Of a stretch of 64,000 nucleotides of DNA, positions 41,284-56,936 are shown piece by piece. The stretch lies in assembly GCA_021817245.1 (NCBI GenBank), contig JAKAVQ010000002.1, positions 14,721-78,720 on the forward strand, given 5' to 3'. A program made the position numbers and the translations under genes. The DNA comes from Thermoplasmata archaeon (GTDB taxonomy: Archaea > Thermoplasmatota > Thermoplasmata > Lutacidiplasmatales > UBA184). The notes below the pieces were generated by a model. The model saw only the letters and a list, made by a program, of their open reading frames with translations, was not told the DNA's origin and made no database searches. Position 1 is the stretch's first letter. Each line of letters opens with the position of its first letter.

Positions 41284-41559
41284 CTTCGGTCTCCGGCGGC
41301 GGGAGTCTCGCTCGCTATATTATCGTGGACGGCGGCCGCCGACCGGTCGCCCCGCCCCCGTGTTCCCCCACCGTAACGACCCGCGTCATCGCAGGCGCTC
41401 GCCCTCTCGGAGGTCTGACCCCGGCCGGGGGTGTCGGACACCGGGGTTGTCCTCACGTCATCCTCGGCGGACGACCCGTCCGCATTGAGTCGAGAGGGAC
41501 CCTTCGTCGGTACCCGGGCACGACCTGGGGTCGTACCGAAGCCGACAGAGTGCGCGTCA

Positions 41560-42087: not shown

Positions 42088-43379
42088 CCGGCCCTCCGGG
42101 TGAGCGGGCGGTGCAAGAAGCTCACGAACCCGGCGAGCGACCAGTAATCCTCCCAGTCGATGGTCGGGGCGTACCGCCAGGACTCGGCGAGCCGTTGCCG
42201 CCGCAACAGGCGCGCGAGCCGGGCGACGATCGCCTCCTCCTCGTCGGAGAGCGTTCGCTCGGCCGCGACGATCGGGATCGGCGACGGGCTCAGGACGACC
42301 ACGGGGTACCCGCGCCGGCGCAGGAACGGAACGAGGTCGGCCGTCGAGGCCTCGGCGAGCGGAGAGAGGAGGAGCGTCGTCACGCCCGGTCGGAAGTACC
42401 GGGCCGCGGCGATCGCCCCGCGCTCCGACGGCGCCCGGACGTCCGCGAGGCGGGCCCCGAGCAGGCCCTCGCGCACCCGCTGGGCGTGCGCCCTCCCCAT
42501 TCCCAGCGGAACGACGTCGAGGAACTCGCCGAACACGGCGAGCCCGACCCGCGCCTTCTCGCGCAGGAACGACGAGGCGATCCCGGCCGCCGCCGCCCGC
42601 GAGATCCCGAGGAGCCGCTCGTCGAGGGCGGGCCCGAGGGAGGAGGGGCGCGCATCGAGGTAGAGGAGGACGTCACCGGTTCGGTCCGGCTCGTACTCGT
42701 TCGCGAGGTAGTCGCCCGCGCGGGCGCTCGCCCGCCAGTTGATCCGTCGCGGCGGGTCGCTCGGGACGGCGGAACGTATCCCGTGGAACTCGCCGGCGGA
42801 GCCGAGCCGCGGGGAACGGCTCTCGCCCGGGAGCAGCATCGTCCGCCGCAACGGGACCGACCCGATGCGGGCGACCTCGGGCGGGTACCGCTCGACGATC
42901 GTCGGGGACGCCTCGACCTCCACGGCCCGTTCGACGAGGCCCATCGGGTCCCGCCATCGGGCGCGGACAGGGGGGACGACGACGATCGCCGGCTCGCGGA
43001 TCTTCCAGGTCCGCTCGAACGTGACGGTGGCCCCGGAGCGACCCTCGCGCGGAGGCCGGGACTCGGCGAGCCCGGGCGGTCGGTCGCACTCGATGACCAG
43101 GTCGCCCGCACGGCCGTCGGACCGAAGGGTCACCGATCCCCGGAACAGCACGTCCGCACCGTGGCCCTCGGCTCGGGTGTCGACCCGGGCCGACGGGGGG
43201 CTCCTCGGCCCGGCGAAGGCGGCCGCCGGCGCCGCGAGCAGGAGCGGGAGCGCGAGGAAGAGCGGTGCCGGGTTGCGCGCGGCCACCCCGAGGAGGAGGA
43301 GCGCCGCTCCGGACGCCGCGAGCAGGAAGGCGCGAGGCTGCCACTCGAGCGGACTCGCGCCGCTCGCGGCCTCGCTCAC
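42084..43379 (-). CDS. DUF58 domain (vWA-like) protein
   Basis: …GEFHGIRSAVPSDPPRRINWRASARAGDYLANEYEPDRTGDVLLYLDA… DUF58 core. N-terminal TM. GTG start overlapping upstream stop (GTGA). Confidence 0.8.
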   Translation of the reverse strand: MSEAASGASPLEWQPRAFLLAASGAALLLLGVAARNPAPLFLALPLLLAAPAAAFAGPRSPPSARVDTRAEGHGADVLFRGSVTLRSDGRAGDLVIECDRPPGLAESRPPREGRSGATVTFERTWKIREPAIVVVPPVRARWRDPMGLVERAVEVEASPTIVERYPPEVARIGSVPLRRTMLLPGESRSPRLGSAGEFHGIRSAVPSDPPRRINWRASARAGDYLANEYEPDRTGDVLLYLDARPSSLGPALDERLLGISRAAAAGIASSFLREKARVGLAVFGEFLDVVPLGMGRAHAQRVREGLLGARLADVRAPSERGAIAAARYFRPGVTTLLLSPLAEASTADLVPFLRRRGYPVVVLSPSPIPIVAAERTLSDEEEAIVARLARLLRRQRLAESWRYAPTIDWEDYWSLAGFVSFLHRPLTRRAG

Positions 43380-43783
43380 GAGCGGGCCTCGAGTTCGTCG
43401 ATCCGCCCGCGCACGTACTCGCGGAACTCGGCTCCGGAGAGCCGGACGAGCCGGGCCTGCTCCTCCGGGCGTCGTCCCGCAAAGGCGGGGTTCGGTCCGG
43501 TCCGTTCGTAATTGTCGAGCAGCGAGACGATCAGCTCCCGACCGACGCGCCCCGTGCGGAACGCGGTCCGGAGACGGTCCACCTCGCCGGAGGAGCGCGG
43601 GGCGCCGGGCGGCCGCGCCCGTCGCGCTACGGACGGCGCGCTCTCGACGAAGAGGAACGCCGCGGCCGCGACCGCGGCGGTCGCCGCCGGGACCGCGAGC
43701 GCGAAGTTCGTGCCGGCCCACACCGCGACCCCGGTGGCGACGACCGCTACGGCCCCCGCGATCGTCGCGAGCGGACGGTTCAC
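43376..43783 (-). CDS. small hypothetical membrane-anchored protein
   Basis: GTG start overlapping DUF4129 stop (GTGA). N-terminal TM (…IAGAVAVVATGVAVWAGTNFALAVPAATAAVAAAAFLF…) plus helical cytoplasmic tail. Upstream of ORF 43376..45139 is RS-rich junk. Confidence 0.4.
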   Translation of the reverse strand: MNRPLATIAGAVAVVATGVAVWAGTNFALAVPAATAAVAAAAFLFVESAPSVARRARPPGAPRSSGEVDRLRTAFRTGRVGRELIVSLLDNYERTGPNPAFAGRRPEEQARLVRLSGAEFREYVRGRIDELEARS

Positions 43784-44730
43784 GCGACCTCCGGCGCCCG
43801 CTCGAGGTCGGCCGTCGCCCGCCGCATCGCCCCCGCCGCGCGGTCCGCCGACTCCGGTCCGATAGGATGCGTGGAGTAGCGGGCCTCCTCGAACAGCCGG
43901 GTCAGCTCCGTGGCGACCTCGGGGCGGATCCCGAGCCGAACGAGGTGCTGGACGCGGATCTCCTCCGGAGTGGACGGGTCGATCTGCACGACGTAGCGGC
44001 CGAGCCGCTCGAGGAGGTCGGCGTACAGCCGCTCGATCACGTCGCGCGGGTCGAGGCCCCGGTCGAGGTCGCGGGACGCGCGGGCGAACACGCCCCGCAC
44101 CTCTGCGGCGGTCGGGCCCGAGCCGGGTCGCTGGGAACCGGCGCCCCGCAGGCGACGCGCGGTGGACCATTGGGCCAGGAAGGGCATCACGACCGCCGCG
44201 ACGAGCAGGGTCACGACCGCGAGAGCGACGAACTCGAGCCAGGCGGGGACGTGCCAAGAGAGGAGCACCAGCTCGCCGCCACCGAACGTCGTGTTGTTGG
44301 AGCCGCCGGTCGCGGTGCTGTTGTTGCCCGAGGGCGGTGGGACGGAGCCCGGCGTGCCCCCTCCGCACCAAGGACATCCGCCCGGGTGGAAGAACTGGGC
44401 CGCGGCGACGAACGCGACCCCGAGCAGGATCACCACGAGGAAGGTGATGACCGCCCGGCTCGAGAGCGTCGCGGCGCCCCCCGTTAGCCGGCGGTAGACC
44501 AGGACGACCGCGACGAGCGCGAACAGGCCGAGCAGGGCGTCGGCGATCCAGGTCGCCGGGACGACCAGCTCGCTCGCGGGCTGGGCGGGCGCCCCCGGAG
44601 CCGTCGCCGCGCCGAGCAGCAGGCTCGCCGCCGCCCCGGTCGCGAGGGCGACCGCGAGCACGACGAGGAGGACGAGCGACGGTCGGCCGGTGCGAACGGG
44701 AGCGCGCCCGCCGGCGACGGATTCGCTCAT
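43780..44730 (-). CDS. DUF4129 domain membrane protein
   Basis: …TPEEIRVQHLVRLGIRPEVATELTRLFEEARYSTHP… DUF4129 C-terminal signature. 4 TM helices. CPWCGGG and Asn/Thr/Gly-rich extracytoplasmic segment. Confidence 0.7.
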   Translation of the reverse strand: MSESVAGGRAPVRTGRPSLVLLVVLAVALATGAAASLLLGAATAPGAPAQPASELVVPATWIADALLGLFALVAVVLVYRRLTGGAATLSSRAVITFLVVILLGVAFVAAAQFFHPGGCPWCGGGTPGSVPPPSGNNSTATGGSNNTTFGGGELVLLSWHVPAWLEFVALAVVTLLVAAVVMPFLAQWSTARRLRGAGSQRPGSGPTAAEVRGVFARASRDLDRGLDPRDVIERLYADLLERLGRYVVQIDPSTPEEIRVQHLVRLGIRPEVATELTRLFEEARYSTHPIGPESADRAAGAMRRATADLERAPEVA

Positions 44731-45623
44731 GGACCGGCCGACGCGGGCGGGGAGGGCTTCGGAGCGGGGGAAAGGAAGTAGAAGCTCCGTCGCTCGTGCG
44801 CCGCGGAGAGGACCGCGAAGTCGTCGACGGCGTACCCGAGGTCGAAGGCGGCCCGGAAGGCGTCGCGCACGGCGTGGCGCCAGCGACGCACGCCCGCCTC
44901 CTCGTGCTCGCGGACCGACGCGAGGTCGAACGGGATCTCGAGGTGGGCGCTCGGGCCGGTCGGCTCCTGGACCACGGTCGGGACCCGCAGTCCGCTCTCC
45001 CCGGCGTCGGTCTCGACGATCGGCGTCGATCCCGCCCACCGGCGCTGGACGTCCTCGGACGACGGCAATCGTCCGGCCATCCGCTCCTCGACCCGGACGT
45101 CGGCGAGCGGCCAGACCCAGCGGAGGCGGTCCGTCTCAAGGCCCCGGTCGACCGGATCGTCGAGCTGGCCGAAGTAGTGGGAGAAGTAACGGTCCGGCCG
45201 GGCGCCCAGGCGCCGGACGATCAGACCGGCGCTCCGACCCTCCAGGGGGTCGAACGTCCCGCGGATCTCGGATAGCCCCAGCTTCAGGACCTCGTCCCGC
45301 TGGAACGCTTTCAGCCGGAAGCCGAGGCCGTGGTTCTGGTACTCCGGGCGTACCACCGTGAGGTGGGAGTAGTGGTAGAGGGTCGACCCGTCCCACCCGA
45401 GGAGCGAGATCGTCGCTCCCGCGAGATAGATGTCGGCGAAGGCTCCGAGGACGATCCCGCCGTTGTCCTGGAGGGCGCGCTGGAGCGCGGTCGGGACCCC
45501 GACCTCCGACTCGGGCCCCCAGACCGCCGTCCGGAGTTCCTCGACCTGCCGGAACTCCTCGGGCTTCTGGAGACGGCGGAACCGGAACCCTTCGGTCCGC
45601 GGGGACCCCGCGCCGACCGCCAC
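44727..45623 (-). CDS. GNAT-like acyl-CoA N-acyltransferase fold protein (putative), first gene of the MoxR operon
   Basis: …LTVVRPEYQNHGLGFRLKAFQRDEV… resembles the GNAT motif A (Q/R-x-x-G-x-G/A). ~130-aa C-terminal extension of unknown fold. ATGA overlap with DUF4129 gene. Confidence 0.45.
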   Translation of the reverse strand: MAVGAGSPRTEGFRFRRLQKPEEFRQVEELRTAVWGPESEVGVPTALQRALQDNGGIVLGAFADIYLAGATISLLGWDGSTLYHYSHLTVVRPEYQNHGLGFRLKAFQRDEVLKLGLSEIRGTFDPLEGRSAGLIVRRLGARPDRYFSHYFGQLDDPVDRGLETDRLRWVWPLADVRVEERMAGRLPSSEDVQRRWAGSTPIVETDAGESGLRVPTVVQEPTGPSAHLEIPFDLASVREHEEAGVRRWRHAVRDAFRAAFDLGYAVDDFAVLSAAHERRSFYFLSPAPKPSPPASAGP

Positions 45624-45674
45624 GCACCGTGGACGGGTCCGCCTTACTTAACCCGCTCGCGCCGAACGCTCGGG

Positions 45675-46100
45675 CTAGCGGCGGAGGCGCAGCTCGACCC
45701 GCTTCGACTCGTAGCGGACCTCGTCGGCCGGCGTGAGGTCCCACAGGAGGTTCTCGAGCTCGGGGATGTTCCGAAGGAACTCCGCCTTGCTCTTCGTGAG
45801 CATGAGGTGCTCGAACTTCCGCCGGGCGTTGTAGTAGGCGCCGACAAGGTACCCGCCGACGATGACCACGATCGGGCCGAGGATCACGAACAGGAGGTTG
45901 TAGTTCGCCCCGGGCTGGTCGGTCGCCGAGTTGATCGCCGGGAACGGGCCGGCTCCCGATAGGGGCGTGAAGAAACCGACCGCGAGGACCGTCAGCAGGA
46001 CCCCGACCGCGAGCACGAAGATGGAGACCGCGGCGCGGTACGCCCGCAGGCCGTACCGGAGTCGGCGACCGACCGGGACCGACGCCTCCTCCGACGGCAT
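45675..46100 (-). CDS. small hypothetical membrane protein
   Basis: Two TM helices (…AVSIFVLAVGVLLTVLAVGFF…, …LLFVILGPIVVIVGGYLVGAYY…) then charged helix. Balanced codon usage. Confidence 0.5.
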   Translation of the reverse strand: MPSEEASVPVGRRLRYGLRAYRAAVSIFVLAVGVLLTVLAVGFFTPLSGAGPFPAINSATDQPGANYNLLFVILGPIVVIVGGYLVGAYYNARRKFEHLMLTKSKAEFLRNIPELENLLWDLTPADEVRYESKRVELRLRR

Positions 46101-46214
46101 GCGGCCGGCGGGAGGCTGCCCGACTTAAGAACCTTCGGGGACGTCGGCACGCCACGGTCCGGGCGCAGCACGCTCGCGGGCGCCGCTCCCGGGGCCACAC
46201 GGACGGCCGTCGGC

Positions 46215-47012
46215 TCACCCCGACCGACGTCGGCCGCCGGTGGGGCCGGTCGAGGACCGGTCGGTTCGTCCGAACGGCGAAGGGGCCTCGCCGGCGGGCG
46301 GCTTCGGTCCGGCCGAGGGCGGAGGGACCTCCTCGAGGAGCGGCCGAAGGCGCCGATAGACGAGGACGGCCCCCAGGAAGGCGACCGCGGTCCCGGCGAA
46401 CGCCGCGACCTCGCCGGCGACCGACCCGAGACCGAGCAAGAAGAACCCGACCGCTCCGACGAGCGCGCCCGACAGCGGCCCCCCGGAGCGACGGGTCGTC
46501 CCCGGCCCCGGGCGCAACGACAGCATCGCCCCGGCGACCTCGAGGGCCACGATCGTCACCGACTCGAACAGGGCGAGCGCGAGCGTGTCGGCCGAGATCG
46601 GGCCGACGCCCAGGTACTGGGCGAGGACCGCGAGAGTGACGATCCCTCCGATCGCAGCGCGGAACCCGACGGCGTAGAAGGGGACGCTCCGGTCGCTCCC
46701 CCAGTACCGGGTCCGCGAGAGGATCGCCTGGGCCGCCTCGGTCCCCCCGATCAGCAGGGCGAGGAAGGCGAGCGCGCCGAGCAGGGCGCCGTTGGCCATC
46801 GAGATCACGAAGAGCAGGTAGGCGATCGCGAGCGGCACGCCGACAAAGAGGCCGGCGGTGTAGGCGAACAGCTCCTTGCGCTCGTCGAACCTTGTGACGG
46901 GCACCTGGGGGGTCGCGAACCGACCGACCTCCCACCAGACGAACCCTCCCGAAAGGAGGATACCGACCGCCGCGGCGAGCGTCAGGGTCAGCGTCGGGGC
47001 GGCCACGGTCAC
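46215..47012 (-). CDS. hypothetical polytopic membrane protein
   Basis: GTG start (VTVAAPTLTL…) overlapping trmI stop (GTGA). ~8 TM helices. ORF-track 5' extension is Arg-rich junk. Confidence 0.5.
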   Translation of the reverse strand: MTVAAPTLTLTLAAAVGILLSGGFVWWEVGRFATPQVPVTRFDERKELFAYTAGLFVGVPLAIAYLLFVISMANGALLGALAFLALLIGGTEAAQAILSRTRYWGSDRSVPFYAVGFRAAIGGIVTLAVLAQYLGVGPISADTLALALFESVTIVALEVAGAMLSLRPGPGTTRRSGGPLSGALVGAVGFFLLGLGSVAGEVAAFAGTAVAFLGAVLVYRRLRPLLEEVPPPSAGPKPPAGEAPSPFGRTDRSSTGPTGGRRRSG

Positions 47013-47779
47013 TCGACCTTGCGCCCGGCCGCGAGGAACCCGGTATGGCCGAGCATCTCGAACTCGGGCCGCGTCCCCCCCTCGCCGACGTGGAGCCCGC
47101 GCTCGAGGACCTCGACCGCGCGTACGTCGTCGAACCCGAGGCTGCGGAAGGCCCGGACCGTCCGTTCGAGCTGGTTGTACGTGGGCGTGTAGGTCCCCGC
47201 GTAGCCTCCCGGTCGCAACGCCGCCCGGGCCGAGGCGAGCACCTCCCACGGCTCGGCCAGGTCGAGCACGACGCTCGAGAGCTCCTCCACGTCCAGCCCC
47301 TCGCGGACCACGTCACGCTCCCGGAAGGTCACCCGTTCGGAGAGCCCGGCGCGTTCGACGTTCGCCCGGGCCCCCTCGAGGAACTCCGGCCGTCGGTCGT
47401 AGGAGGTCACGTGTCCGGAGGGGCCCACGGCGTAGGCGAGGGTGATCGTAAGCGCGCCGCTGCCGGCGCCCGCTTCGGCCACGGTCGCGCCGGGCCCCAC
47501 GCCCGCGATCGCGAGGAGGTGGACGGCGTCCTTCGCCGTGACGATCTGGGCTCCGCGGCGGACCGACCCGAGGAGGTCGGCGAGAGAGGGCCGGATCAGC
47601 CGGTACGTCTGCCCGGACCAGGCGATCGGCCGGCCGGGCCGCTGGCCGATCTCGCTCGACAGATCGACCACGCCGTCCTCTCCGACACGCCGGGGCCCCC
47701 GCAGGAGCCGGACCAGGAGCGGTCGCGACCCCCGGCGGGTGAGGACCGCGACCTCCCCTTCCTCCCAGGCGTCCGTGGT
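47009..47779 (-). CDS. trmI: tRNA (adenine57/58-N1)-methyltransferase TrmI (Gcd14 family); start codon unresolved
   Basis: …AQIVTAKDAVHLLAIAGVGPGATVAEAGAGSGALT (SAM site)…DLAEPW… TrmI N-terminal beta-domain (…DAWEEGEVAVLTRRGSRPLLVRLLRGPRRVGEDGVVDL…) is encoded in-frame upstream of the first GTG (47671), with no ATG/GTG/TTG available. 5' coordinate is approximate. Confidence 0.7.
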   Translation of the reverse strand, partial: TTDAWEEGEVAVLTRRGSRPLLVRLLRGPRRVGEDGVVDLSSEIGQRPGRPIAWSGQTYRLIRPSLADLLGSVRRGAQIVTAKDAVHLLAIAGVGPGATVAEAGAGSGALTITLAYAVGPSGHVTSYDRRPEFLEGARANVERAGLSERVTFRERDVVREGLDVEELSSVVLDLAEPWEVLASARAALRPGGYAGTYTPTYNQLERTVRAFRSLGFDDVRAVEVLERGLHVGEGGTRPEFEMLGHTGFLAAGRKVE

Positions 47780-47994
47780 CGGCCCCTCCCCCCGGCCGAT
47801 ACGGCCGCGGAACGGTAATAAGTACGATAACCGCCCCGCGCGGGCTCCGCGACCCTCCGAGGACCGGCCCGGTCGCGCCGCCCCCGTGTCGAACGCCCGA
47901 GGACGGCCGCACCGCGGCGAACACCGGCTTTCCCGTATCCGCGGACGGTGGGGAGCGAAGGATTAAGCGGAATCACCCTGTGCCAGGGCTCGTA

Positions 47995-49422
47995 ATGGTG
48001 GCTCGCCACCGTATCGACCGCTGCACGGTCGCCGCGATCGTGCTCGGGCTCGTGGTCGCCTTCCCCGTGTCGGCTCTTCCCGGCGAGCACGGGATCCTCA
48101 CGACGGGCCCCCGCTCGCCGGCCGGGAGCGGTGGGGTGGGGGGCGGCCTGGTGGGGCTCTCCGACGAGCAGAGCGTCGGCGCCGTCGCCTACTGGGACAC
48201 GTTCTGCCCGTCCACGAGCCCGGGAAGCGGGTGCGTCGTGCCGGAGGGCCTCGCGTACGTCCCGGGGGCGAACCTCATCGTCCTCACGGAGGAGCACGTC
48301 CCGGGCTCGGTCGTTCCCACGGGCCCGGACGCGGTCCAGGAGTTCAACCCGACCACGTTCCAGGAGTCTCCCGCGGTGGACGTCGGCTGCCTTCCCCTGG
48401 TCCCGTTCTATCCGGGCTCGGGCGGCGACGTCTTCATCCCTTGCCAGAACGGCTCGGCCAACTCGATCCTCGTCTTCAACGCGGTGCTCGAGACCGTCGT
48501 CGCCCGCGTCCCCGTGCCGTTCGACATCGCCGCGATGGCGTACGACCCGACGGCGGGGTACGTCGACGTTTTGGGGACGGCCACGGCCGGTGGTTCGGGG
48601 TCCTTCCTCGGGCTCGTCGACCCCTCCGGCGCGGCCCTCGTCCGCGCGATCCCCCTCGGCCCCCAGGTGACGGCCGGGGAGTTTCCCGCGGGCGAGTACG
48701 CGATGGTCTTCGACCCGGTCACCGATCGGTTGATCGTGCCGTCGACCTCGAGCGGGCTGGTGGCGATCGACCCCACGAACGGGGGCGTCGTCGCTGTTCT
48801 CCCCCTCCCCTCGTCGCCGGTCGCCCTGGCGGTCGACCCGGCGACGGACGAGCTCTTCGCATCGTCCGCCGACCCGAGCTCCCTTACCTTGTTCAACGCG
48901 ACGACCTATCGGGCCGCGTCGACGATCCCCTTGCCGAACTGCGTGCGCGGAGATTGCGTGAGCCCGAACGATGCGAACCAGCTCCTGATCGATCCGACCC
49001 ACGGGGACGCCTACCTCGTATCGACCGACGCCCTGTTCGCCCTGAACCTCTCGACGCTCGCGATCGTTGCCGCCGTCGAGGACTATGGGAACGGACCCGA
49101 GCTCAGCTCGGCCTACGTCCCCGGGGTCGACCGCATCTTCGGAACCTACCTCCCCACCAGCATCCCCGGGCCGGGATTCATGCTGCAGCTCGACCACGGG
49201 AGCTACACCGTGGTGAGCTCGATCCTCTGGCTCCCGACCGCGATCGGGATCCTCGTCGCGGGGGCCCTCTGCGGCGGGGCCCTCATCGGGGGGCACCGCC
49301 GGGCCGCCCGGAGGTCGGCCCGACGGCGGCCCGACGGTCCCGGCGAGTCGACCCCGGCTCGACCGGGCGTCGAGGGGACCGGAGCTCCCGCGCCGGGCCG
49401 GGCCGGCGACCCGGAACGGTGA
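47995..49422 (+). CDS. secreted YVTN-family beta-propeller repeat surface protein with C-terminal TM anchor
   Basis: Signal peptide (…AAIVLGLVVAFPVSALPG…). Repeated …Y(D/V)P.…V.V(I/L)D… units (AYDPTAGYVDVLG, VFDPVTDRLIVPS, VAIDPTNGGVVAVL, LAVDPATDELFASS, LLIDPTHGDAYLVS). N-x-S/T sequons. C-terminal TM + HRRAARRSARRR basic tail. Confidence 0.7.
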   Translation: MVARHRIDRCTVAAIVLGLVVAFPVSALPGEHGILTTGPRSPAGSGGVGGGLVGLSDEQSVGAVAYWDTFCPSTSPGSGCVVPEGLAYVPGANLIVLTEEHVPGSVVPTGPDAVQEFNPTTFQESPAVDVGCLPLVPFYPGSGGDVFIPCQNGSANSILVFNAVLETVVARVPVPFDIAAMAYDPTAGYVDVLGTATAGGSGSFLGLVDPSGAALVRAIPLGPQVTAGEFPAGEYAMVFDPVTDRLIVPSTSSGLVAIDPTNGGVVAVLPLPSSPVALAVDPATDELFASSADPSSLTLFNATTYRAASTIPLPNCVRGDCVSPNDANQLLIDPTHGDAYLVSTDALFALNLSTLAIVAAVEDYGNGPELSSAYVPGVDRIFGTYLPTSIPGPGFMLQLDHGSYTVVSSILWLPTAIGILVAGALCGGALIGGHRRAARRSARRRPDGPGESTPARPGVEGTGAPAPGRAGDPER

Positions 49423-49639
49423 GCCTTGTGCGAAAGGTCCCTGTCGGGGCCATCCCGGGGGGGGACGGTGAGCGCTCGGGCGGCCGAAACCGAGGAGGTC
49501 GACCGGAGTTCGGGTCGCCCGCCCTCGTGGCCGATAGACGTCGGAAAGCAGCGGGCATACAGTCGTTGGGGCGGCTTTCGTCGCGCTCAGGTCGTGGGGA
49601 GCCAGCAGAGCGACGGGGAAGGTTCTGTTGCTCGGTCTG

Positions 49640-49673
49640 CGGCGATATATCCCGACCTCACCTTAGTGTGACA
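49640..49673 (+). promoter_or_regulatory. TATA-like promoter for second surface-protein gene (leaderless)
   Basis: ggcGATATATccc at 49641-49653, ~25 nt before ATG 49674. Confidence 0.4.
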
Positions 49674-51788
49674 ATGCCCCGACGCCGGGTCCCGCCCGGC
49701 ATCCTGCCGCTGGGCTTGGTGATCGTCGTACTCGCCTCGGTCGGTGGTCCGCACCTCGCCTCGCTCACGTCAGGAGCCTCAAGTCCCGGATCCGGGGGGG
49801 ACCTAACGGGGTACACTCCGGGCAGCATCTCCCTGGGTCCTCCCGGTGGGTCCCCGTACTCGGTCGTCTACGACGCCGCCTCCGACACGGTATGGGTCAG
49901 CTCCGGGACGTCGGTCCTCTACGATGTTTCATTGACGAACCGCTCGCTCGTGTCGACCGTCGACGTCGGCGTGACGCTATGGCCCGGCCCCGAAGCGTTG
50001 GCGCTCGACCCCGCGGCGGGGGACCTGCTCGCCGTGACCATGTCGAACAGCCTCGCGGCCGTCGGCCTCGCCAATCACTCCGACATTCGCCTCGTCCCGG
50101 TCGGTTCGGAGCCGGTAGCCGTCCTCTACGCCTCCACCTTGAACCAGGTGCTGGTCGCGAACTTCGCGTCCAGCGGCATCTCGATCCTCAACGGGACCAC
50201 CCTCGACCCCGTGGCGTCGTTCGCCACGGTCTTTCCCACGGCCCTCGCGTTCGACCCGGCTTTGGGAGGCGTGGTTCTGGCGGGATCGTACGGTTTCACC
50301 GGACTCTCCTACGTAGCTGCTTCGGCTGAAAACGGTTCGAACATTTGGACCATGACGCCACCCCCCAACGAGAGTTCTAACGGGCCGAGCGGGCTCATCT
50401 TCGACCCGCTGAACCACCGAGTCTACGTCACCACGGCCGTGACCAGCAACAACGTCCTGGCGATCGACGCGACGGACGGGACGATCGTCGAAACGATACC
50501 GGTGGGTTCGACACCGACCTCCCTCGCCCTCTCTCCGACCGGCGACACCCTGTTCGTTACCGACCGGGGCTCGAACGACGTGACCGTCGTCAACGTCAGC
50601 GCACCGTCTCCCCTGGTGAGCACGGTGGCGGTCGGCGGTGCCCCCCAGGGCCTCGCGTACGCCACGGCATCGAACCAGGTCCTCGTGGCCGACGGGGAGG
50701 GGTTCAGCCTGAGCGCCATCGATGTCCCGGGTCTCGCCGCGCTTCCCCCGATCCCGCTCAGCTGGGGCCCTCGGACCGTGACCTTTGTGCCCGAGCAGGG
50801 ACAATTGTACGCGGCCGGTGGAATGTCCTTGTTCGCGGTCAATGCCACCACCCTGCGTCCCTGGGCGCGCGTCGATGTGGGGCAGTATCCGCAGACGATC
50901 GTCTACGACCCCCTGAACGAGAGCCTGTTCGTGACGAACGCGGACAGCAACACCTTGAGCGTCGTCTCGGCCCCCCGCTTGGCGCCCGAGTCGAACCGGT
51001 CGGTCGGCGCGTTCCCGATCGGAGCGACGTACGACAACCAGAGCGGGTCGATCCTGGTGACGCTGGGCGGGTCGGACCTCCTCGAGGAGATCTCGGCGGT
51101 CAACGACTCGGTCCTCCGGTCGGTGACGGTCGGGTCCGTTCCGGCGGGCGTGATCCTGGATCGCGCCGTCGGAGAGATCTTCGTCACCAACTTCGGGGGC
51201 GACACCGTGAGCGTCGTCTCGGACTCGACCTTCCGGGTCGTCGGGACCATCAAGCTGGACCTCTCCGCCTACTCGGCGCCGGCCGCGCCCGGACTCCCCG
51301 CACTGGACCCGACCAACGGGGAGATCTTCGTGCCCGACCGTGGCACCGGCAACGTCAGTGTCATCTCGGACACCTCCTTGTCGGTGATCGCGACTCTCCA
51401 CGTGCCGGTGATCGCCTACGACGCGGTCTACGATCCGGTCACGGACCGCGTCTATGTCAGCGACCCGGCGAACGACTCCGTCGCGGTCATCGACCCGAAC
51501 TCGCTCAACGTGACGGGTTCCCTGGCCACGGGCAGCGCCCCGTACGGGATCGCCTGCGATCCCCAGAACGGGACGGTCTACGTGGCGAACGTGGCGTCCG
51601 ACAACATCACCCACTTCACACCGGCGCTCACGGTGTCCAAGACCCCCGCACCCACGGTCGGGCTCATCTACGGGTCCCTGGGAATCTCGATCGTGGTCGG
51701 GGCGAGTTCGGCCGCTTACGCCCGGTGGCGGCTACGGCACGCACGCCGGACCCCATCCGAAGGCCCGCCCCCCGGTGCGGCCCTGTAA
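49674..51788 (+). CDS. large YVTN-family beta-propeller repeat surface (glyco)protein with C-terminal TM anchor
   Basis: Start inside ORF 48231..51788. Signal peptide (…ILPLGLVIVVLASVGG…). ≥12 repeats (…VYVTTAVTSNNVLAIDATDGTIVETIPVGSTPTSLALSPTGDTLFVTDRGSNDVTVVNV… etc.). >20 N-x-S/T sequons. C-terminal TM + RWRLRHARR. Confidence 0.75.
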   Translation: MPRRRVPPGILPLGLVIVVLASVGGPHLASLTSGASSPGSGGDLTGYTPGSISLGPPGGSPYSVVYDAASDTVWVSSGTSVLYDVSLTNRSLVSTVDVGVTLWPGPEALALDPAAGDLLAVTMSNSLAAVGLANHSDIRLVPVGSEPVAVLYASTLNQVLVANFASSGISILNGTTLDPVASFATVFPTALAFDPALGGVVLAGSYGFTGLSYVAASAENGSNIWTMTPPPNESSNGPSGLIFDPLNHRVYVTTAVTSNNVLAIDATDGTIVETIPVGSTPTSLALSPTGDTLFVTDRGSNDVTVVNVSAPSPLVSTVAVGGAPQGLAYATASNQVLVADGEGFSLSAIDVPGLAALPPIPLSWGPRTVTFVPEQGQLYAAGGMSLFAVNATTLRPWARVDVGQYPQTIVYDPLNESLFVTNADSNTLSVVSAPRLAPESNRSVGAFPIGATYDNQSGSILVTLGGSDLLEEISAVNDSVLRSVTVGSVPAGVILDRAVGEIFVTNFGGDTVSVVSDSTFRVVGTIKLDLSAYSAPAAPGLPALDPTNGEIFVPDRGTGNVSVISDTSLSVIATLHVPVIAYDAVYDPVTDRVYVSDPANDSVAVIDPNSLNVTGSLATGSAPYGIACDPQNGTVYVANVASDNITHFTPALTVSKTPAPTVGLIYGSLGISIVVGASSAAYARWRLRHARRTPSEGPPPGAAL

Positions 51789-52126
51789 TCGAAGCGCGAG
51801 GGGAGGTCCCTCGGAACCGCCCCCCGTCGGTTCGCCAGTTCCTGCACCCGGACGGCTCGCCTCTCCGCCCTAGGGTCGTACCGCCCAACGTCCTCGGGCC
51901 GGTGGTCGTTCGATCGGGACCAGGGGTGGACCGCAAGCCTCCTGCCCGGGGATCGGCGCGGGACGGTTCGACGGCGATCGACGTGGGGGCGACTCCCCGG
52001 TGCCCCAACGAACGGGAGCGATCCCCGGGAGCTCCCACCCAGTGAACGAGACCGGGTCCAGATGCTGGCGACGGTCGGCCTTATACCACCGACCCCTCTC
52101 GGGGTCGACTCGACGGGAGTCGACAC

Positions 52127-52200
52127 GCGGGCATAGTGTAGTCTGGTTATCACATAGGCTTGCCAAGCCTATAACCCGGGTTCAAATCCCGGTGCCCGCA
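52127..52200 (+). tRNA. tRNA-Gly (anticodon GCC)
   Basis: GCGGGCA/TGCCCGC acceptor stem. GTG..CAC D-stem. TAGGC-TTGCCAA-GCCTA anticodon arm with GCC in loop positions 34-36. CCGGG-TTCAAAT-CCCGG T-arm. Discriminator A. No encoded CCA, no intron. Coordinates cross-checked against ORF 52000..52338. Confidence 0.85.
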
Positions 52201-52352
52201 CTCCTCTTCGCTCCCGGCGGCGCTTTCGGGGATCGCTCCCGTCCGCGCCCCCCACGGTCGCGGGGAGCGCCGCGAACGGACCCGGTCCGGGGCCGGAAGC
52301 TGGGGCGCGCGGGGGATGGGTCTCCCACGGCGCGGTAGGAAGTCCCGTCGGA

Positions 52353-53294
52353 TCACTCGGGTGCGCTAGGCTCGCCCACCGAGTGCACCCGGGAGCGATC
52401 GACCGCCAGCCATCGATAGCCGTCCTCGACCCGCACGTTCGCCACGAGCAGGTCGTGGCTGGCGAGTTCCGTGCGGTAGCGGATCAGCGAATCGAACACG
52501 GTGATCGGGTCGTCGCCGGTCAGCTCCGAGAGCTCGCGCGTTGTTCCCATCCAAGCGCCGTCGCGCACGAGGCCGGTGATCACTCGGACGTACCGCGGCG
52601 AACCCTCCTCGTCGGCGGACTCCACCGCCCGTCCGCCCGACCGGGAGAACTCGGCCGGAGGGTCGACGGGCTCAGGTTCGGGAGGAGGAGCCGCGGCGAG
52701 CCGCCGAGCCGGCCGGGGAGCGAGCGGTGCGGTGGGAGGAACCGGCGCCCCAGCGGCTGGCGATTCGCCGAGATCGTCGATCAGCGTCTCGACCTCCCGA
52801 CCGAGCTCGGCCCAACGGGAGGCGGGGGCCGGTACTCGGGACGAAGCGACCGCGCCCTCGTTCCACGGCGGGGTAGCTCCGGAAGGGAGCGTCATCCTCG
52901 GTTGCGCGGCGCCGCCCGACGGCATGCGTTCGCACATCGGCGACCCGAGCCGGGGCGTATCGACGTCGGGGTCGAAGACCCGGGCGACGACGATGCGGAC
53001 GAACTGCGCGATGTCGTCCTCGGGCACCGGCCGCAGGTTCCGACGCATCCGGAACCGGTCGATCGCGCCGCGAAGCTCGGGGCTGGGAACGGGGAACGCC
53101 CGGCGGTGGGCACCGTCCTGGAGGGCCGCCCACGGCCGGGATTTCGCGTCGCAAAAGAGCCGAAGGCCGGCGAACCGGACGAGGTCGTGGTAGAGGACGT
53201 GGGCCGGCGGACCCCCCATCGCGTCGATCGGGGGGATCCACTCGTCGTCGGCGTAGCGGCTGACCTCCCGGATCCGGATCTCCTCGACTCCCAT
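52353..53294 (-). CDS. hypothetical protein with C-terminal winged-helix-like domain
   Basis: Start at internal M (MGVEEIRIREVSRYADDEW…); the ORF-track N-terminal 92 codons overlap the GGT RBS/start on the other strand. ~130-aa N-domain, Pro/Ala-rich disordered linker, then C-terminus …WMGTTRELSELTGDDPITVFDSLIRYRTELASHDLLVANVRVEDGYRWLAV (wHTH-like). No family recognised. Confidence 0.45.
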   Translation of the reverse strand: MGVEEIRIREVSRYADDEWIPPIDAMGGPPAHVLYHDLVRFAGLRLFCDAKSRPWAALQDGAHRRAFPVPSPELRGAIDRFRMRRNLRPVPEDDIAQFVRIVVARVFDPDVDTPRLGSPMCERMPSGGAAQPRMTLPSGATPPWNEGAVASSRVPAPASRWAELGREVETLIDDLGESPAAGAPVPPTAPLAPRPARRLAAAPPPEPEPVDPPAEFSRSGGRAVESADEEGSPRYVRVITGLVRDGAWMGTTRELSELTGDDPITVFDSLIRYRTELASHDLLVANVRVEDGYRWLAVDRSRVHSVGEPSAPE

Positions 53295-53551
53295 GTTCGT
53301 TGCCCGGTCGATGCTCCGCCCTCGGCCGCCGGTTCCCCTGACCTCGAATCTGCTGCCGGGACCGCGCCTATAGTCGTTGTGGGGGAGTGGAAAGAGGTTT
53401 CCGAGGAGGACCGCCTCCGGCCCGGATCCGGGGGATGCCGGTGGGCGCCGCCCGTGACGGGACGGCGGGACGGGCCCGCGGGCGATTCCCTCGGGAACGC
53501 AAGCTGAAATCTCCCGGCCGTTACGGAAAGGGGAGCGCCAGGAGACGGTCG

Positions 53552-55036
53552 GTGAAAGGTGCGGTCGCATCGGGACACCCGCTCAGCACGGCGGCGGGCG
53601 AGGCGGTCCTCGAGCGCGGCGGGAACGCGTACGATGCGGTCGTCGCGACCAGCGCGGCGTTGACGGTCGTCCAACCGCACGCGAACGGCCTCGGCGCGGA
53701 CTTCTTCGCGGTCGTGGACGACCACGACGACGTCCGTTCGGTGAACGGGAGCGGTTGGGCGGCGGCCGAAGCGACCCCGGACGCGTTCCGGGCGCGCGGC
53801 CTCTCCGCCGTTCCGACGACGGGTCCGCTCTCGGCGTTCACCGTCCCCGGGCTCGTGGCCTCCTGGGCCCTTCTCCTCCCGCGGACGTCCCTACCGTTCG
53901 CCGACCTTCTCGCGCCGGCGGTCCGCCTCGCTCGCGACGGGTTCCCGGCCACCCCGGGGCTCGTCCGGTCCGCCCGGGCAACCCTCGGCCACGCGGACGA
54001 GGACTTTCGGGCGCTCTACTCGGATCTCGTCCCCCACGCCCCGCTCCGACAGCCCGAGCTCGCCCGGACCCTCGAAGCGATCGGCGGGGACGAGGGGCAT
54101 TCGTTCTACCACGGCGACATCGCCCGGGCGATCGACGAGGAGATGCGGCGGAAAGGGGGTCTTCTCCGACGGCAGGACCTCGATGGTTACCGGGCCGAGT
54201 GGACGACGCCCCTCAAGGTCCGCTACCGGGGACATGACGTCTATACCACTCCCCCCAACAGCCAGGGAGCGACCGCGCTCATCTGGCTCAACTTGCTGGC
54301 GACCCAGGACTTCGCGACCGTCGCGCCGGCCGAGTACGTCGCGGCGCTGGTACGCACGATGCCGGTCGCCTACGCGTACCGGGCCCGCCACATCGGGGAC
54401 CCACGGTCGGTTGAGTTCCCGGCCGAGCTCCTCCGCCCGACGTACCCGTACGCCCCGGCGACGCTCGCCGGCGCTCCGTCGTTCGGCGCCGGCGACACGA
54501 CGGCCTTCTCCGTGACCGACGGAACGGTCGGCGTGAGCGCGATCCAGAGCAACTTCATGGGCTTCGGCTCGGGGCTGACGGTGCGGGGGACCGGGATCAA
54601 CCTCAACAACCGGGGGTCGTACTTCTCCCTCGACCCGGGTCACCACAACGTCGTCGGCCCGGGCCGACGCACCTTCCACACCCTGATGGCGGTCGTCGCA
54701 AAAGGTTCCGGCGACACTCTCCTGCTCGGCACGATGGGCGGCGACGTGCAGCCCCAGGTGAACGTACAGGTCCTGACGCGCGTGCTCGACCGGCACGAGG
54801 GGCTCTCGGAAGCGATCGCCGCTCCCCGGTTCGCCTGGCCGGCGACGATCTACGGGTCGGCCGACCTTTACGCGGAGGTCGAGCTCGGCCTTTCGGGGGC
54901 GCAGGTGGTCCGCGGCGAACGGTCCCTCTTCGGCCACGCCCACGCGATCCGCTTCGGGAACCGACTCGAGGTCGGCATCGACCCCCGGGGCGAGGGCCGG
55001 GCGGAGACGGGCGGCGGGCCGGCCTCCCGGAGCTAG
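53552..55036 (+). CDS. gamma-glutamyltransferase family protein
   Basis: AGGAGA RBS + GTG. …GHPLSTAAGEAVLERGGNAYDAVVAT…, autocatalytic Thr region GDTTAFSVTD, …TMGGDVQPQV…. Confidence 0.85.
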   Translation: MKGAVASGHPLSTAAGEAVLERGGNAYDAVVATSAALTVVQPHANGLGADFFAVVDDHDDVRSVNGSGWAAAEATPDAFRARGLSAVPTTGPLSAFTVPGLVASWALLLPRTSLPFADLLAPAVRLARDGFPATPGLVRSARATLGHADEDFRALYSDLVPHAPLRQPELARTLEAIGGDEGHSFYHGDIARAIDEEMRRKGGLLRRQDLDGYRAEWTTPLKVRYRGHDVYTTPPNSQGATALIWLNLLATQDFATVAPAEYVAALVRTMPVAYAYRARHIGDPRSVEFPAELLRPTYPYAPATLAGAPSFGAGDTTAFSVTDGTVGVSAIQSNFMGFGSGLTVRGTGINLNNRGSYFSLDPGHHNVVGPGRRTFHTLMAVVAKGSGDTLLLGTMGGDVQPQVNVQVLTRVLDRHEGLSEAIAAPRFAWPATIYGSADLYAEVELGLSGAQVVRGERSLFGHAHAIRFGNRLEVGIDPRGEGRAETGGGPASRS

Positions 55037-55117
55037 CTCTACCCGACGCTCCCGCCCCCTTCCGGGGCCGATTCCGCGCGCTCCCAACCGCTCCCGTCCG
55101 GTCCGCGGGCCCGGGTC

Positions 55118-56026
55118 GTGATGTTTTTGAGAGGGATGTCCTATCGACGCACGATGGCCCACGTTCGCACGATGAGCATACCGGGCGGCCGGTCGTTCGA
55201 GTACGTCGCCCAGGGTCGGGGCCCGGCGACCCTCCTCGTCCACCCCGGTGGCCCGGGCCTCACCTACCACTACCTCCGGGGCCTCCTCAAGCTCGCGAAC
55301 GCGAACCTCCGGGTGATCCTGTTCAACCCCCGGGGCGTCGGCCGCAGCTGGGCGCCGAAGAGCCCCCGCGAGTACACGATCGCGAACCAGGCGGAGGACG
55401 TCGAGGCCCTGCGGCGGGCGTTCGGCATCCGGGAGCTGCACCTGCTCGGCTATTCGGCGGGCGGGTTCGTCGCGCTCGAGTACGCGCACCGGCACGAGAA
55501 CCGGCTGACCTCGCTCCTCCTCTGCGCCACCGCCGGGTCCGCGGAGGAGATCCGCGCCGCGAACCGGACGATGCTGCTCGCGGCCTCGCCGCAGCAGCGC
55601 GCCCGCCTGCGGGCGCTCACGCGGGCTCGCGCGTTCGACTCCCCCGAGTACCGCTCGCTCGCCGAGCGGATCGCCCGGCCGTTCCAGACCCGGTTCCTCA
55701 CCGACGTCCCCGCCGACTGGAAGGCGACGAAGTCCTCGCCCGCCGTTTACCAGGCGATGATGACCCGCTCGGGGGACGAGTTCGCGGTCGACGGTACGGT
55801 CGCGTCGTGGGACGGCCGGAAGTACTACTCGAAGATCGAGGTCCCGAGCGCCGTCGTGGTCGGAAAGTACGACTTCTTCCTCGAGGCGTCGATGGAGATG
55901 GCGGAGCGGATCGAGCCGGCACACCTTCGCGTGCTGCCCCACAGCAGCCACATGGAGGTCCTCGAGCAGCCGCGCGAGTTCCTCGGTACGGTCCGGGAGT
56001 TCCTGGGCGACGTCACCGGGGGCTGA
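55118..56026 (+). CDS. alpha/beta hydrolase (proline iminopeptidase-like)
   Basis: …LLVHPGGPG… oxyanion region. Nucleophile elbow GYSAGG. C-terminal …HSSHME… (catalytic His). Confidence 0.8.
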   Translation: MMFLRGMSYRRTMAHVRTMSIPGGRSFEYVAQGRGPATLLVHPGGPGLTYHYLRGLLKLANANLRVILFNPRGVGRSWAPKSPREYTIANQAEDVEALRRAFGIRELHLLGYSAGGFVALEYAHRHENRLTSLLLCATAGSAEEIRAANRTMLLAASPQQRARLRALTRARAFDSPEYRSLAERIARPFQTRFLTDVPADWKATKSSPAVYQAMMTRSGDEFAVDGTVASWDGRKYYSKIEVPSAVVVGKYDFFLEASMEMAERIEPAHLRVLPHSSHMEVLEQPREFLGTVREFLGDVTGG

Positions 56027-56102
56027 GGCCCGCAGGGCGGTGCGCCCCGACCCGGACCAAAGGCGGTAAACCCCCCGAGGGGCTGGGTCGCCCGAGGCAC
56101 CG

Positions 56103-56828
56103 ATGGGGGAGGAGGCACGGACCGCCGGCGGCCGCGCGGCGCCCGACCCTCGGGTCGCGACGGTCCGCCTGCGCGTGACCCCGGAGGCGGCCCGGGCGCT
56201 CGCGGCCGCGCTCTCGGGCCACCCGGAAGGTTCGGGCGTCCGCGTCTGGGTCGAGCGCGGGATGCGTCCGCACGCCCAGATGATGGTCGACCGGCCGTCC
56301 CACCGGGACCTCCCCGTCGACGTCGAGGGGGTTCGCCTGCTGGTCGACGAGGCGAGCCTCGCGTTCCTGCGAGATGCCGAGATCCGCTACCGGACCGACC
56401 AGGACCCGCCCGGTTTCGAGGTCGTGGGACCGTTCCTCCCGTCGACCGCGGCGCCTCCGACCGGCCCGGCGCCGACGGCCCCCGCGCCCGGCGGCGCGGG
56501 GCCGGTCGGGGCGTCGGCGGAGCACTCGAAGGTCGAGGAACGGGTGCGCGCGGCGCTCAAGAACATCTACGACCCCGAGATCCCGATGAACGTCATCGAC
56601 CTCGGCCTGATCTACGGCATGGACTGGGGCGAGGCCGGGGACCTCACGATCCGCATGACGCTCACGAGCCCGGGGTGCCCGGCCGTCGAAGCGTTCACCG
56701 AGGAGGTCACGCGGGCGGCGCGGGATGCCTCGGGCCTCGACCGCGTGAAGGTCGACATCGTCTGGGAACCCCCGTGGGGCCCGGAGCGGATGACCGAGTT
56801 CGCGCGGCGGCAGTTCGGCTACGCCTAG
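56103..56828 (+). CDS. fusion protein: HesB/IscA-like (Fe-S biosynthesis fold, Cys-less) N-domain + DUF59/MIP18 (SufT-like) C-domain
   Basis: N-terminus …VRLRVTPEAARALAAAL…VRVWVERGMRPHAQMMVD…VRLLVDEASLAFLRDAEIRY has HesB-like topology without the CGCG/SF motif. C-terminus …VRAALKNIYDPEIPMNVIDLGLIYGMDWGEAGDLTIRMTLTSPGCPAVEAF… is the DUF59 signature. Confidence 0.65.
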   Translation: MGEEARTAGGRAAPDPRVATVRLRVTPEAARALAAALSGHPEGSGVRVWVERGMRPHAQMMVDRPSHRDLPVDVEGVRLLVDEASLAFLRDAEIRYRTDQDPPGFEVVGPFLPSTAAPPTGPAPTAPAPGGAGPVGASAEHSKVEERVRAALKNIYDPEIPMNVIDLGLIYGMDWGEAGDLTIRMTLTSPGCPAVEAFTEEVTRAARDASGLDRVKVDIVWEPPWGPERMTEFARRQFGYA

Positions 56829-56936
56829 GGCGGACGCGCGGGACGGCGCGCAGAGGACCCGGTCGGCCGCCGTCGGACCCCGCGGCGCGTCCTCCGGCAC
56901 CTTTTTGTGCCGTGGTCGTAGACGCTCCCCCGACGC

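Follow-up and report, generated by a model that had tools for sequence, protein, structure and literature searches.

Gene 1 and gene 2, two adjacent genes in a 64-kb stretch of DNA (the window) from a high-GC archaeon of the Thermoplasmata, are independent and do not form a functional pair, because gene 1 is a conserved core gene and gene 2 is a strain-specific insertion. Both products are ordinary membrane-anchored surface beta-propellers, and nothing marks either of them as an S-layer protein. The predicted architecture, that of an archaeal type-I membrane-anchored surface (glyco)protein on propellers of the YVTN/YncE class, is supported for both. Taken as a whole, it is quite probable that they are independent extracytoplasmic propeller glycoproteins, one core (gene 1) and one accessory (gene 2), with a role in binding. 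The two genes are:

47995-49422, + strand: gene 1 (p1), 475 aa, based on coding frame, start scoring, hydropathy, family alignment, AF2, Foldseek and hhalign
49674-51788, + strand: gene 2 (p2), 704 aa, based on TIGR02276, PF21783, sequons, hydropathy, AF2, Foldseek and codon usage

Both genes are coding according to the third-position GC frame plot, they lie on the same strand, and independent start-codon scoring picked identical starts. Two further sequencing runs, assembled independently, show their junction as well (L002 and L003, the latter carrying gene 1 only in part), and therefore the arrangement is not chimeric. The first-pass annotation had described adjacent genes of 476 and 704 aa; both are real and co-oriented, and the second length is correct, but the product of gene 1 has 475 aa. 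The gene content of the window is archaeal, with geranylgeranyl reductase, LysX and archease, and relatives carry PolD DP2.

The topology of the two products is defined by the following segments:

aa 1-27 of gene 1: signal-like N-terminus, from hydropathy
aa 411-433 of gene 1 (nt 49225-49293): TM helix, with the Arg cluster next to it and a 42-aa tail
aa 662-683 of gene 2 (nt 51657-51722): TM helix, with the tail RWRLRHARR plus 12 aa

Each protein starts with a basic N-terminus followed by a hydrophobic stretch of 16-18 residues (KD19 maxima of 2.42 in gene 1 and 2.12 in gene 2). Read manually with the Sec criteria of a positive n-region, an h-region of 7-15+ hydrophobic residues and small residues at -3 and -1, the n-, h- and c-regions are MVARHRIDR / CTVAAIVLGLVVAFPV / SA-LPG in gene 1 and MPRRR / VPPGILPLGLVIVVLA / SVGG in gene 2. 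The N-terminus varies across the gene 1 family, yet it is always basic and hydrophobic. Both proteins would be exported via Sec by this signal segment, which may be an uncleaved N-terminal anchor instead of a cleaved signal peptide. A Tat signal was rejected for gene 2, the RRR of which is not conserved in its orthologue, as was a lipobox at C10 of gene 1, which is not conserved in the family.

At the other end, each protein has one hydrophobic helix followed by an Arg cluster (KD19 of 2.04 in gene 1 and 1.64 in gene 2), in agreement with the single C-terminal TM helix proposed earlier for each product. The short Arg-rich cytoplasmic tail proposed along with it is accurate as to the Arg cluster in both proteins, but only 21 residues lie beyond the helix in gene 2 and as many as 42 in gene 1, which is not short. 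The helix would hold each protein at the cell surface, with the Arg cluster predicted to be cytoplasmic because of the positive-inside rule. Many N-glycosylation sequons had been noted in both products. This is true of gene 2, which has 16 N-X-S/T sequons versus 5.8 +/- 2.1 in shuffles, but not of gene 1, which has only 3 and shows no enrichment (p = 0.17). N-glycosylation would take place at N351 in gene 1 and at the 16 sites in gene 2. The signal-like segment, all-beta ectodomain, C-terminal TM helix and Arg cluster are found in both products and bear out the surface-glycoprotein architecture; we infer that both proteins are expressed, exposed at the surface and glycosylated.

The two ectodomains differ considerably in how they relate to known propeller families. 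Gene 2 scores 111.9 bits against TIGR02276 (cutoff 27.85), in 8 stretches, and is a bona fide YVTN-repeat protein; it also scores 53.1 bits against PF21783, the YncE-like propeller (gathering score 27.1 bits), and matches TIGR03866 with a partial score. Its AF2 model (pLDDT 77.5) is a tandem double YVTN propeller at about aa 47-650, in which the loop at 188-235 has low confidence, and its Foldseek matches are the tandem 7+7 propellers Utp21 (4nsx), Aip1 (1nr0) and 2ymu. Gene 1 has no Pfam match and reaches only 10.3 bits (E = 0.53) against TIGR02276, under the cutoff of 27.85 bits. However, profile-profile comparison by hhalign relates it to the gene 2 family (99.6%, E 4e-24), and a profile search with the gene 1 family reaches thousands of multi-repeat YVTN proteins. 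The AF2 model of gene 1 (pLDDT 77.8, pTM 0.72) is a single 7-bladed propeller at about aa 46-410, the best Foldseek matches of which are YncE (3vgz/7seu; E 1e-12, TMt 0.74-0.76) and 1l0q; YncE is also the best PDB sequence match (E 2.8e-9). Gene 1 is considered a propeller because of the profile-profile comparison and the predicted fold only; within the YVTN superfamily it forms a divergent subfamily that the curated TIGR02276 model does not include. Of the YVTN blades claimed for both genes, the HMM recovers those of gene 2 and not those of gene 1; of the 7- or 8-bladed propellers expected from structure prediction, gene 1 conforms with a single 7-bladed one while gene 2 is a tandem double propeller. 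The two products are only distant relatives, 28% identical over 182 aa. This value, together with gene 2 being an insertion, rules out recent tandem duplicates.

Clustered at 50% identity, the gene 1 family has about 70 full-length representatives; all the GTDB loci found for it are Thermoplasmata MAGs. Its members are about 450 aa long and 35-47% identical across the family; they are annotated only as 'hypothetical protein', with no Pfam domain on record, and none of the few papers found on YVTN proteins and the S-layer in archaea, or on S-layer and beta-propellers in Thermoplasmata, describes the family. In the family alignment, C71, C80, C132 and C150 are invariant, and C316 and C321 are present in at least 90% of the members. 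The sequon at N351 is found in 28 of 28 members and the one at N152 in 21 of 28. A W412-L-P414-T motif is conserved at the membrane interface, with W-x-P invariant, and the segment of only about 20 residues between propeller and membrane forms one long strand (394-410) in the model. The protein would have three probable disulfides, with C71-C80, C132-C150 and C316-C321 as the candidate pairs, and a propeller sitting almost directly on the membrane. A role of the W-x-P motif in processing or sorting, as a signal of a new type, is conceivable but improbable. DPxHGDAY was rejected as an active site, being just the best-conserved case of the generic blade motif D-P-x-x-G-x-x-Y-V. All-versus-all ORF clustering of 17 loci revealed no conserved operon or partner: no neighbour of gene 1 is kept outside close relatives, which is consistent with gene 1 being monocistronic. 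Codon usage of gene 1 is average for the 52 genes called in the window (z = -0.69). Gene 1 would be a vertically inherited core gene of the lineage.

Each gene also appears to have its own promoter, with a TATA-like box some 30 nt 5' of the ATG:

47961-47967, + strand: TATA-like box GATTAAG of gene 1, the hexamer beginning 34 nt before the ATG at 47995
49644-49651, + strand: TATA-like box GATATATC of gene 2, 22 nt before the ATG

The box of gene 1 lies in a block, GGAGCGAAGGATTAAGCGGA, that is identical in the window and in two related loci (L004 and L008), while the sequence immediately upstream is variable; it belongs to the -36..-28 class, which is enriched in this window. There are only 38 AT-rich clusters in the 64 kb, and the box of gene 2 is among them; it is kept as GTATATC, along with the ATG, in the orthologous locus L001. 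The first-pass annotation had placed GATATAT 25 nt before this ATG; the box is there and conserved. The class of TATA-like boxes is found at 11 of the 52 genes, compared with about 1.3 expected. These boxes are conserved, positionally enriched and at the distance expected for leaderless or near-leaderless mRNA, in support of the proposal that each gene has its own leaderless promoter. Gene 1 and gene 2 would each be transcribed from their own box as such an mRNA.

The proposal that the two genes are a tandem pair fails on comparison with related genomes, in which gene 2 and its surroundings are an insertion bounded as follows:

49560-52126: 2,567-bp segment with gene 2 and its promoter, absent from relatives 90% identical in nucleotide sequence
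49551-49566, + strand: imperfect copy of the tRNA-Gly 5' end (13/16 nt, the first 9 exact), left border of the insertion
52127-52201, + strand: tRNA-Gly(GCC), right border of the insertion (ARAGORN; Rfam RF00005, 70.4 bits)

When the window is compared with L004 by blastn, only 44001-49559 and 52127-56868 match, the two segments overlapping by 9 nt. In L004, the stop codon of gene 1 is followed after 130 nt by tRNA-Gly, without gene 2; the arrangement is the same in L008, with gene 2 missing between gene 1 and tRNA-Gly, and in L021 the spacing after gene 1 equals that of L004 and leaves no room for gene 2. In these three loci, gene 1 is 76-80% identical to that of the window, and the flanks are 90% identical in nucleotide sequence where measured. 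None of the other loci of the gene 1 family has a gene 2 homologue within 6 kb, and the sole close orthologue of gene 2 has unrelated flanks. Repeat search and junction alignment place the direct repeat formed by 49551-49566 and 52127-52142 exactly at the indel junction. A direct repeat of part of the tRNA at both ends is expected of a tRNA-targeted integrative element, but no integrase or recombinase is found in 49560-52126, where gene 2 is the only gene called and matches only propeller families. No outgroup with shared synteny was found at the indel. The codon usage of gene 2, the most atypical among the 52 genes of the window (z = -2.54), and the foreign context of its orthologue are the reasons for which we infer a gain here rather than a loss in the sister lineage. 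Gene 2, an accessory tandem double propeller that would be heavily decorated at its sequons, probably entered the genome beside tRNA-Gly as a cassette comprising the gene and its promoter.

These data bear directly on the suggestion that the two proteins are the major cell-envelope proteins of the organism. Gene 2 is absent from the sister genomes and so cannot be the major envelope protein of the lineage, and its codon usage argues in the same direction. It is unlikely that either or both of the proteins serve as the S-layer or major envelope glycoprotein, even though a signal segment, a glycosylated beta-rich ectodomain and a C-terminal TM anchor are common to many archaeal S-layer proteins, gene 1 is kept through the lineage with an invariant sequon, and the PDB relatives are named 'surface layer protein'. 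Lineage-wide presence, as expected of an S-layer protein, is observed for gene 1 and not for gene 2. However, gene 1 has average codon usage and only 3 sequons, and it lacks both a stalk and an Ig-like array; as a proxy for abundance, codon usage favours neither gene. Moreover, S-layer proteins are usually far less conserved than the 35-47% identity seen across the gene 1 family. As for the name, YVTN proteins such as PDB 1L0Q are called 'surface layer protein' by similarity, and the name is not known to reflect a demonstrated S-layer role.

Alternatively, gene 1 might be a surface ligand-capture propeller feeding a membrane transporter, like the BtuG-type YncE-family propellers of Bacteroides or the TIGR03866 propellers beside ABC transporters. 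Three structures from Bacteroides with the name 'surface layer protein/YncE family', which we take to be B12-binding BtuG proteins, are weakly matched by the gene 1 profile (8bai, 8bmx and 3dsm; E ~5e-4), TIGR03866 is partially matched by gene 2, and a gene 1 homologue adjoins an ABC-2 transporter in L005, L007 and L013. The sequence matches, however, span just one or two generic blades, and the transporter gene is divergently oriented and is kept as a neighbour neither across the family nor in the window, which makes a transporter-coupled role improbable. We would give an equally low probability to the broader proposal that the gene 1 family is a conserved basal component of the envelope in this lineage, such as a scaffold close to the membrane or an anchor of the S-layer, or that it captures ligands in the manner of BtuG. 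It is very improbable that the two proteins act outside the cell as enzymes of the lactonase, SGL or arylesterase type. Gene 2 does reach the Pfam cutoff of PF10282 Lactonase, with 45 bits, and just passes that of PF08450 SGL (28.0 versus 26.3), but the similarity is local and limited to blade stretches of 65-90 residues; no lactonase or SGL match was obtained for gene 1, and its invariant features are Cys pairs, the D-P-x-x-G-x-x-Y blade motif, the sequon and W-x-P, with no metal-binding or catalytic constellation. By analogy with other propellers, the function of both proteins is more plausibly binding: a face of the propeller would serve to capture a ligand, to adhere or to make contact with other cells, and the proteins would act neither as enzymes nor as the main S-layer lattice.

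The results give a structure and topology annotation to a conserved 'hypothetical protein' family of uncultured soil and sediment Thermoplasmata. They also point to a sequon-rich double-propeller surface protein as strain-variable cargo beside a tRNA gene, a pattern expected of surface-variation or adhesion genes. Their value is modest in that the envelope protein of these organisms is not identified and no new mechanism is opened.

The C-terminus of gene 1 resembles the tripartite PGF-CTERM/archaeosortase signals in having a motif (W-L-P-T), a TM helix and a basic cluster. However, neither protein matches any NCBIfam model of C-terminal sorting signals at E <= 1, P393-G394-F395 of gene 1 lies about 15 residues ahead of the TM helix instead of directly adjoining it, and the tails extend up to 40-50 aa beyond the basic cluster. 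W-L-P-T occurs only in the gene 1 family, being absent from gene 2 and its relatives, and no motif is common to other surface proteins; a known sorting signal was therefore rejected, given the lack of an NCBIfam match and the confinement of W-L-P-T to this family. The gene 2 homologues in Thermoplasmata commonly have this type of ending, a TM helix, RRR and a Pro-rich tail, without any motif in common, which points to a generic anchor. No archaeosortase, AglB or other envelope-biogenesis genes were found in the window. Its sole envelope-biogenesis candidates, a GT2 glycosyltransferase (36872-37663) and a CPBP/Rce1-like protease (30641-31519), are unlinked to the locus.

Among characterized proteins, E. 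coli YncE is the closest to gene 1 in structure, yet this bacterial protein is soluble in the periplasm and has no TM anchor, and identity to it is 13-14%. Both genes fall short of the YncE equivalog model NF052280 (cutoff 400 bits), gene 2 scoring 77.7 bits and gene 1 15.9 bits. Another comparable case is the YVTN + PKD 'surface layer protein' of Methanosarcina mazei (YVTN/TIGR02276, PDB 1L0Q): its YVTN-type propellers are like those modelled for gene 1 and gene 2, it is among the top fold and sequence matches of gene 1, and the likeness extends to being archaeal, extracellular and predicted glycosylated. Unlike 1L0Q, gene 1 and gene 2 lack PKD domains and accessory domains of any other type. 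Gene 2 consists of little more than two tandem propellers and a TM anchor, in contrast to its relatives in Thermoplasmata, which are multidomain proteins of 1000-1200 aa. Finally, secreted beta-propeller/YncE-family proteins of Thermoplasmatales have already been catalogued as arCOG02560, arCOG02562 and arCOG02532, and a role in intercellular interactions has been suggested for them (PMC10354927). In both the class of organism and the predicted class of secreted surface propeller, these proteins correspond to gene 1 and gene 2.

The products of gene 1 and gene 2 are both surface glycoprotein-like propellers, and each gene has a predicted promoter of its own, as the first-pass annotation had claimed. 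However, the two genes do not form a pair, and the proposed role as major envelope proteins finds no support. The annotation was largely correct in what it observed and half right in how this was interpreted. The features concerned are the following:

47961-47967: GATTAAG, TATA-like box of gene 1, 27 nt before its ATG
47995-49422 (+): gene 1, 475 aa
49551-49566: GCGGGCATACAGTCGT, left border of the insert carrying gene 2, a 13/16 copy of the tRNA 5′ end at 52127-52142 (right border)
49644-49651: GATATATC, TATA-like box of gene 2, 22 nt before its ATG
49674-51788 (+): gene 2, 704 aa

Because the GC content of the window is 73%, raw ORF lists are crowded with spurious frames. Nevertheless, the third-position GC frame plot places the coding signal on the + strand, in the frames that 47995-49422 and 49674-51788 occupy, and a separate score maximising the GC3/GC2 contrast reproduces both start codons exactly. 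The gene 1/gene 2 junction is real, since L002, a locus assembled independently from another sequencing run, has TrmI, gene 1 and gene 2 in the same order, and in L003 (a third run) the 3′ end of gene 1 is followed by gene 2. Named relatives of both proteins come mostly from Thermoplasmata or Euryarchaeota archaeon MAGs, and every gene 1 family locus found in GTDB belongs to a Thermoplasmata archaeon MAG. Among the genes of the window are archaeal ones (geranylgeranyl reductase, a LysX-type pathway, archease and AMMECR1), and PolD DP2 is encoded at related loci. A cluster of MoxR AAA ATPase, DUF58 and DUF4129 genes (40333-44730, -) is syntenic in the related loci L004 and L021. At 6096-6193 (-) ARAGORN reports a "tRNA-???" of 98 nt whose anticodon has 2 bases; it falls within a class-III aminotransferase gene (5925-7022), received no confirmation from Rfam and is probably a false positive.

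The claim that the genes constitute a pair fails on comparison with L004 (GCA_027459305.1). At the nucleotide level this locus shares 90% identity with window positions 44001-49559 and 52127-56868, but the 2,567 bp between 49559 and 52127, gene 2 included, are missing, leaving 130 nt from the gene 1 stop to tRNA-Gly(GCC). In L008 gene 1 is likewise followed by tRNA-Gly, and in L021 the distance from gene 1 to the next gene is 343 nt, as in L004, after which the contig ends. No gene 2 homologue was found within 6 kb of any other gene-1-family locus. Gene 2 has a single close orthologue, P0002 (83% aa identity), in L001. At the nucleotide level it is 86% identical to window positions 49617-51813, over the promoter, the gene and a further 25 nt. 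The sequences on either side are unrelated to the window and contain no tRNA, and the upstream part is of lower GC. Among the 52 genes called, synonymous codon usage is most atypical in gene 2 (z = -2.54), whose GC3 is 0.875 versus a mean of 0.935; that of gene 1 is inconspicuous (z = -0.69). Gene 2 is best understood as an accessory cassette of gene plus promoter that was acquired beside tRNA-Gly. The 2,567 bp contain no integrase, and the insert may be what is left of an integrative element or the product of a microhomology-mediated event. No neighbour of gene 1 is conserved throughout the family, which fits a stand-alone gene.

Several other features lie near these insertion boundaries. A 27-nt inverted repeat, 85% complementary, flanks tRNA-Gly (52009-52035 and 52219-52245); its left arm is inside the insert and absent from L004. 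It could reflect leader-trailer pairing or be a trace of the origin of the insert. Directly past the tRNA, a 313-aa ORF (52353-53294, -) without a Pfam match ranks second in atypical codon usage (z = -2.3) and is conserved in L004 and L008. In L001, two genes of 57% GC (557-2167) lie upstream of the gene 2 orthologue. Both products are Ser/Thr/Asn-rich and sequon-rich, and one has a hydrophobic N-terminal segment, which hints at a variable surface-protein island.

For both genes the promoter claim holds as a prediction from sequence. The GATATATC box and the ATG of gene 2 are conserved in L001, and GATTAAG is within a block identical across three genomes, the adjacent sequence being variable. 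Archaeal TATA boxes stand at such distances from the ATG of leaderless or near-leaderless mRNAs, which both genes would therefore produce. Hexamers with at least 5 A/T occupy only 0.27% of window positions, yet in 11 of the 52 genes such an AT-rich hexamer begins at position -36 to -28 relative to the start codon, versus about 1.3 expected (~8-fold); examples are the genes at 13403, 23920, 33033 and 45675. This suggests that leaderless transcription is common in this organism. The window, L004 and L008 share an identical AT-rich block, GGTAATAAGTACGATAACC (47813-47831). The true TrmI start is probably about 30 codons earlier than the called one (47671), because the upstream in-frame translation resembles a genuine N-terminal extension, and this block is probably the divergent TrmI promoter.

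The gene 2 protein matches the YVTN repeat model TIGR02276 with 111.9 bits (cutoff 27.85; 8 matched repeats). It also exceeds the cutoff of PF21783 (YncE-like propeller; 53.1 bits) and is far below the equivalog thresholds of YncE, hydrazine synthase and the other models listed. Its AF2 model (pLDDT 77.5) is all-beta over residues 47-650; it has ~55 strands, and the loop at 188-235 is disordered. The PDB structures it resembles most are tandem double seven-bladed propellers, among them Utp21, Aip1 and 2ymu. The protein contains 16 N-X-S/T sequons versus 5.8 ± 2.1 in shuffles. It begins with MPRRR and an 18-residue hydrophobic stretch and ends with a hydrophobic helix (aa 662-683), RWRLRHARR and 12 further residues.

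YVTN repeats and numerous sequons had been attributed to both proteins; in gene 1, TIGR02276 reaches only E = 0.53, and the 3 sequons are no enrichment (p = 0.17). A Pfam search with gene 1 returned no match. Gene 1 represents a subfamily without a curated model, coherent and with members of 430-480 aa. A word-indexed search found 30 members, all unnamed or "hypothetical protein", with PF16819 on the homologue P0078 as the only Pfam domain on record; an exhaustive profile search gave ~70 full-length representatives of clusters formed at 50% identity. Beyond its own family, the profile matches thousands of multi-repeat YVTN proteins via the middle blades. Against the gene 2 alignment, hhalign gives 99.6% probability (E 4e-24, 250 columns), and the two window proteins align by BLASTP with 28% identity over 182 aa (E 6e-11). 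The structure predicted by AF2 is a single propeller (pLDDT 77.8, pTM 0.72). Its closest matches are YncE of E. coli, which is 7-bladed (E 1e-12, TMt 0.74-0.76), and 1l0q, a YVTN/PKD protein from M. mazei; these two are also the best PDB sequence matches of the profile.

Four cysteines (C71, C80, C132, C150) are invariant in the gene 1 family, and C316 and C321 are kept in at least 90% of it; three extracellular disulfides are probable. Conservation extends to a blade motif, D333-P-x-H-G-D-A-Y. The N351 sequon occurs in 28/28 members and the N152 sequon in 21/28, which supports, by inference, an extracellular, N-glycosylated domain. W412-x-P414 is located at the beginning of the C-terminal helix (aa 411-433), after which come HRRAARRSARRR and a Pro/Gly-rich tail of 30 residues. 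A second, partial gene 1 paralogue is present in L015, 6.8 kb downstream (12847-13116). L020 has two separate gene-1-like matches ~1.1 kb apart (4222-4914 and 6001-6579) that span residues 48-276 and 259-451, which would fit either a gene that is split or interrupted or two copies that have diverged. The gene 1 homologues of three fairly divergent relatives have a divergently oriented ABC-2 transporter pair on one side and a co-oriented ftsZ on the other (L005 5983-10749; L007 5685-11005; L013 225-5017).

In Thermoplasmata homologues of gene 2, the C-terminal TM helix is commonly followed by an RRR(K) cluster and a Pro-rich tail whose length varies. W-L-P-T is confined to the gene 1 family. 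Since the C-termini of these gene 2 homologues have no common motif, NCBIfam sorting-signal models (PGF-CTERM and others) match neither protein at E ≤ 1, and the window encodes no archaeosortase, both C-termini are best read as putative plain type-I TM anchors that follow the positive-inside rule.

The analysis shows the fold class, the distribution of the families, the insertion and sequence features that fit the topology. Both proteins would be exported by Sec and subject to AglB-type glycosylation, with the propeller face probably serving in binding. The alternative that they are extracellular Lactonase/SGL-type enzymes is weak, because such matches are only short, at blade level, and the invariant gene 1 residues are structural. 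Gene 1 could instead be a transporter partner: its profile matches 8bai/8bmx/3dsm (E about 5e-4), presumably B12-binding BtuG proteins, and ABC-2 neighbours occur at three loci. We regard this only as a lead. An S-layer or other major envelope function of gene 2 is contradicted, since sister genomes lack the gene. A putative S-layer function of gene 1 is unsupported, given the lack of a stalk and the average codon usage; its conservation is also unusually high for an S-layer protein.

Secreted YncE-family/YVTN propellers have already been catalogued in Thermoplasmatales and were proposed to mediate intercellular interactions (PMC10354927). The products of gene 1 and gene 2 are further members of that kind.
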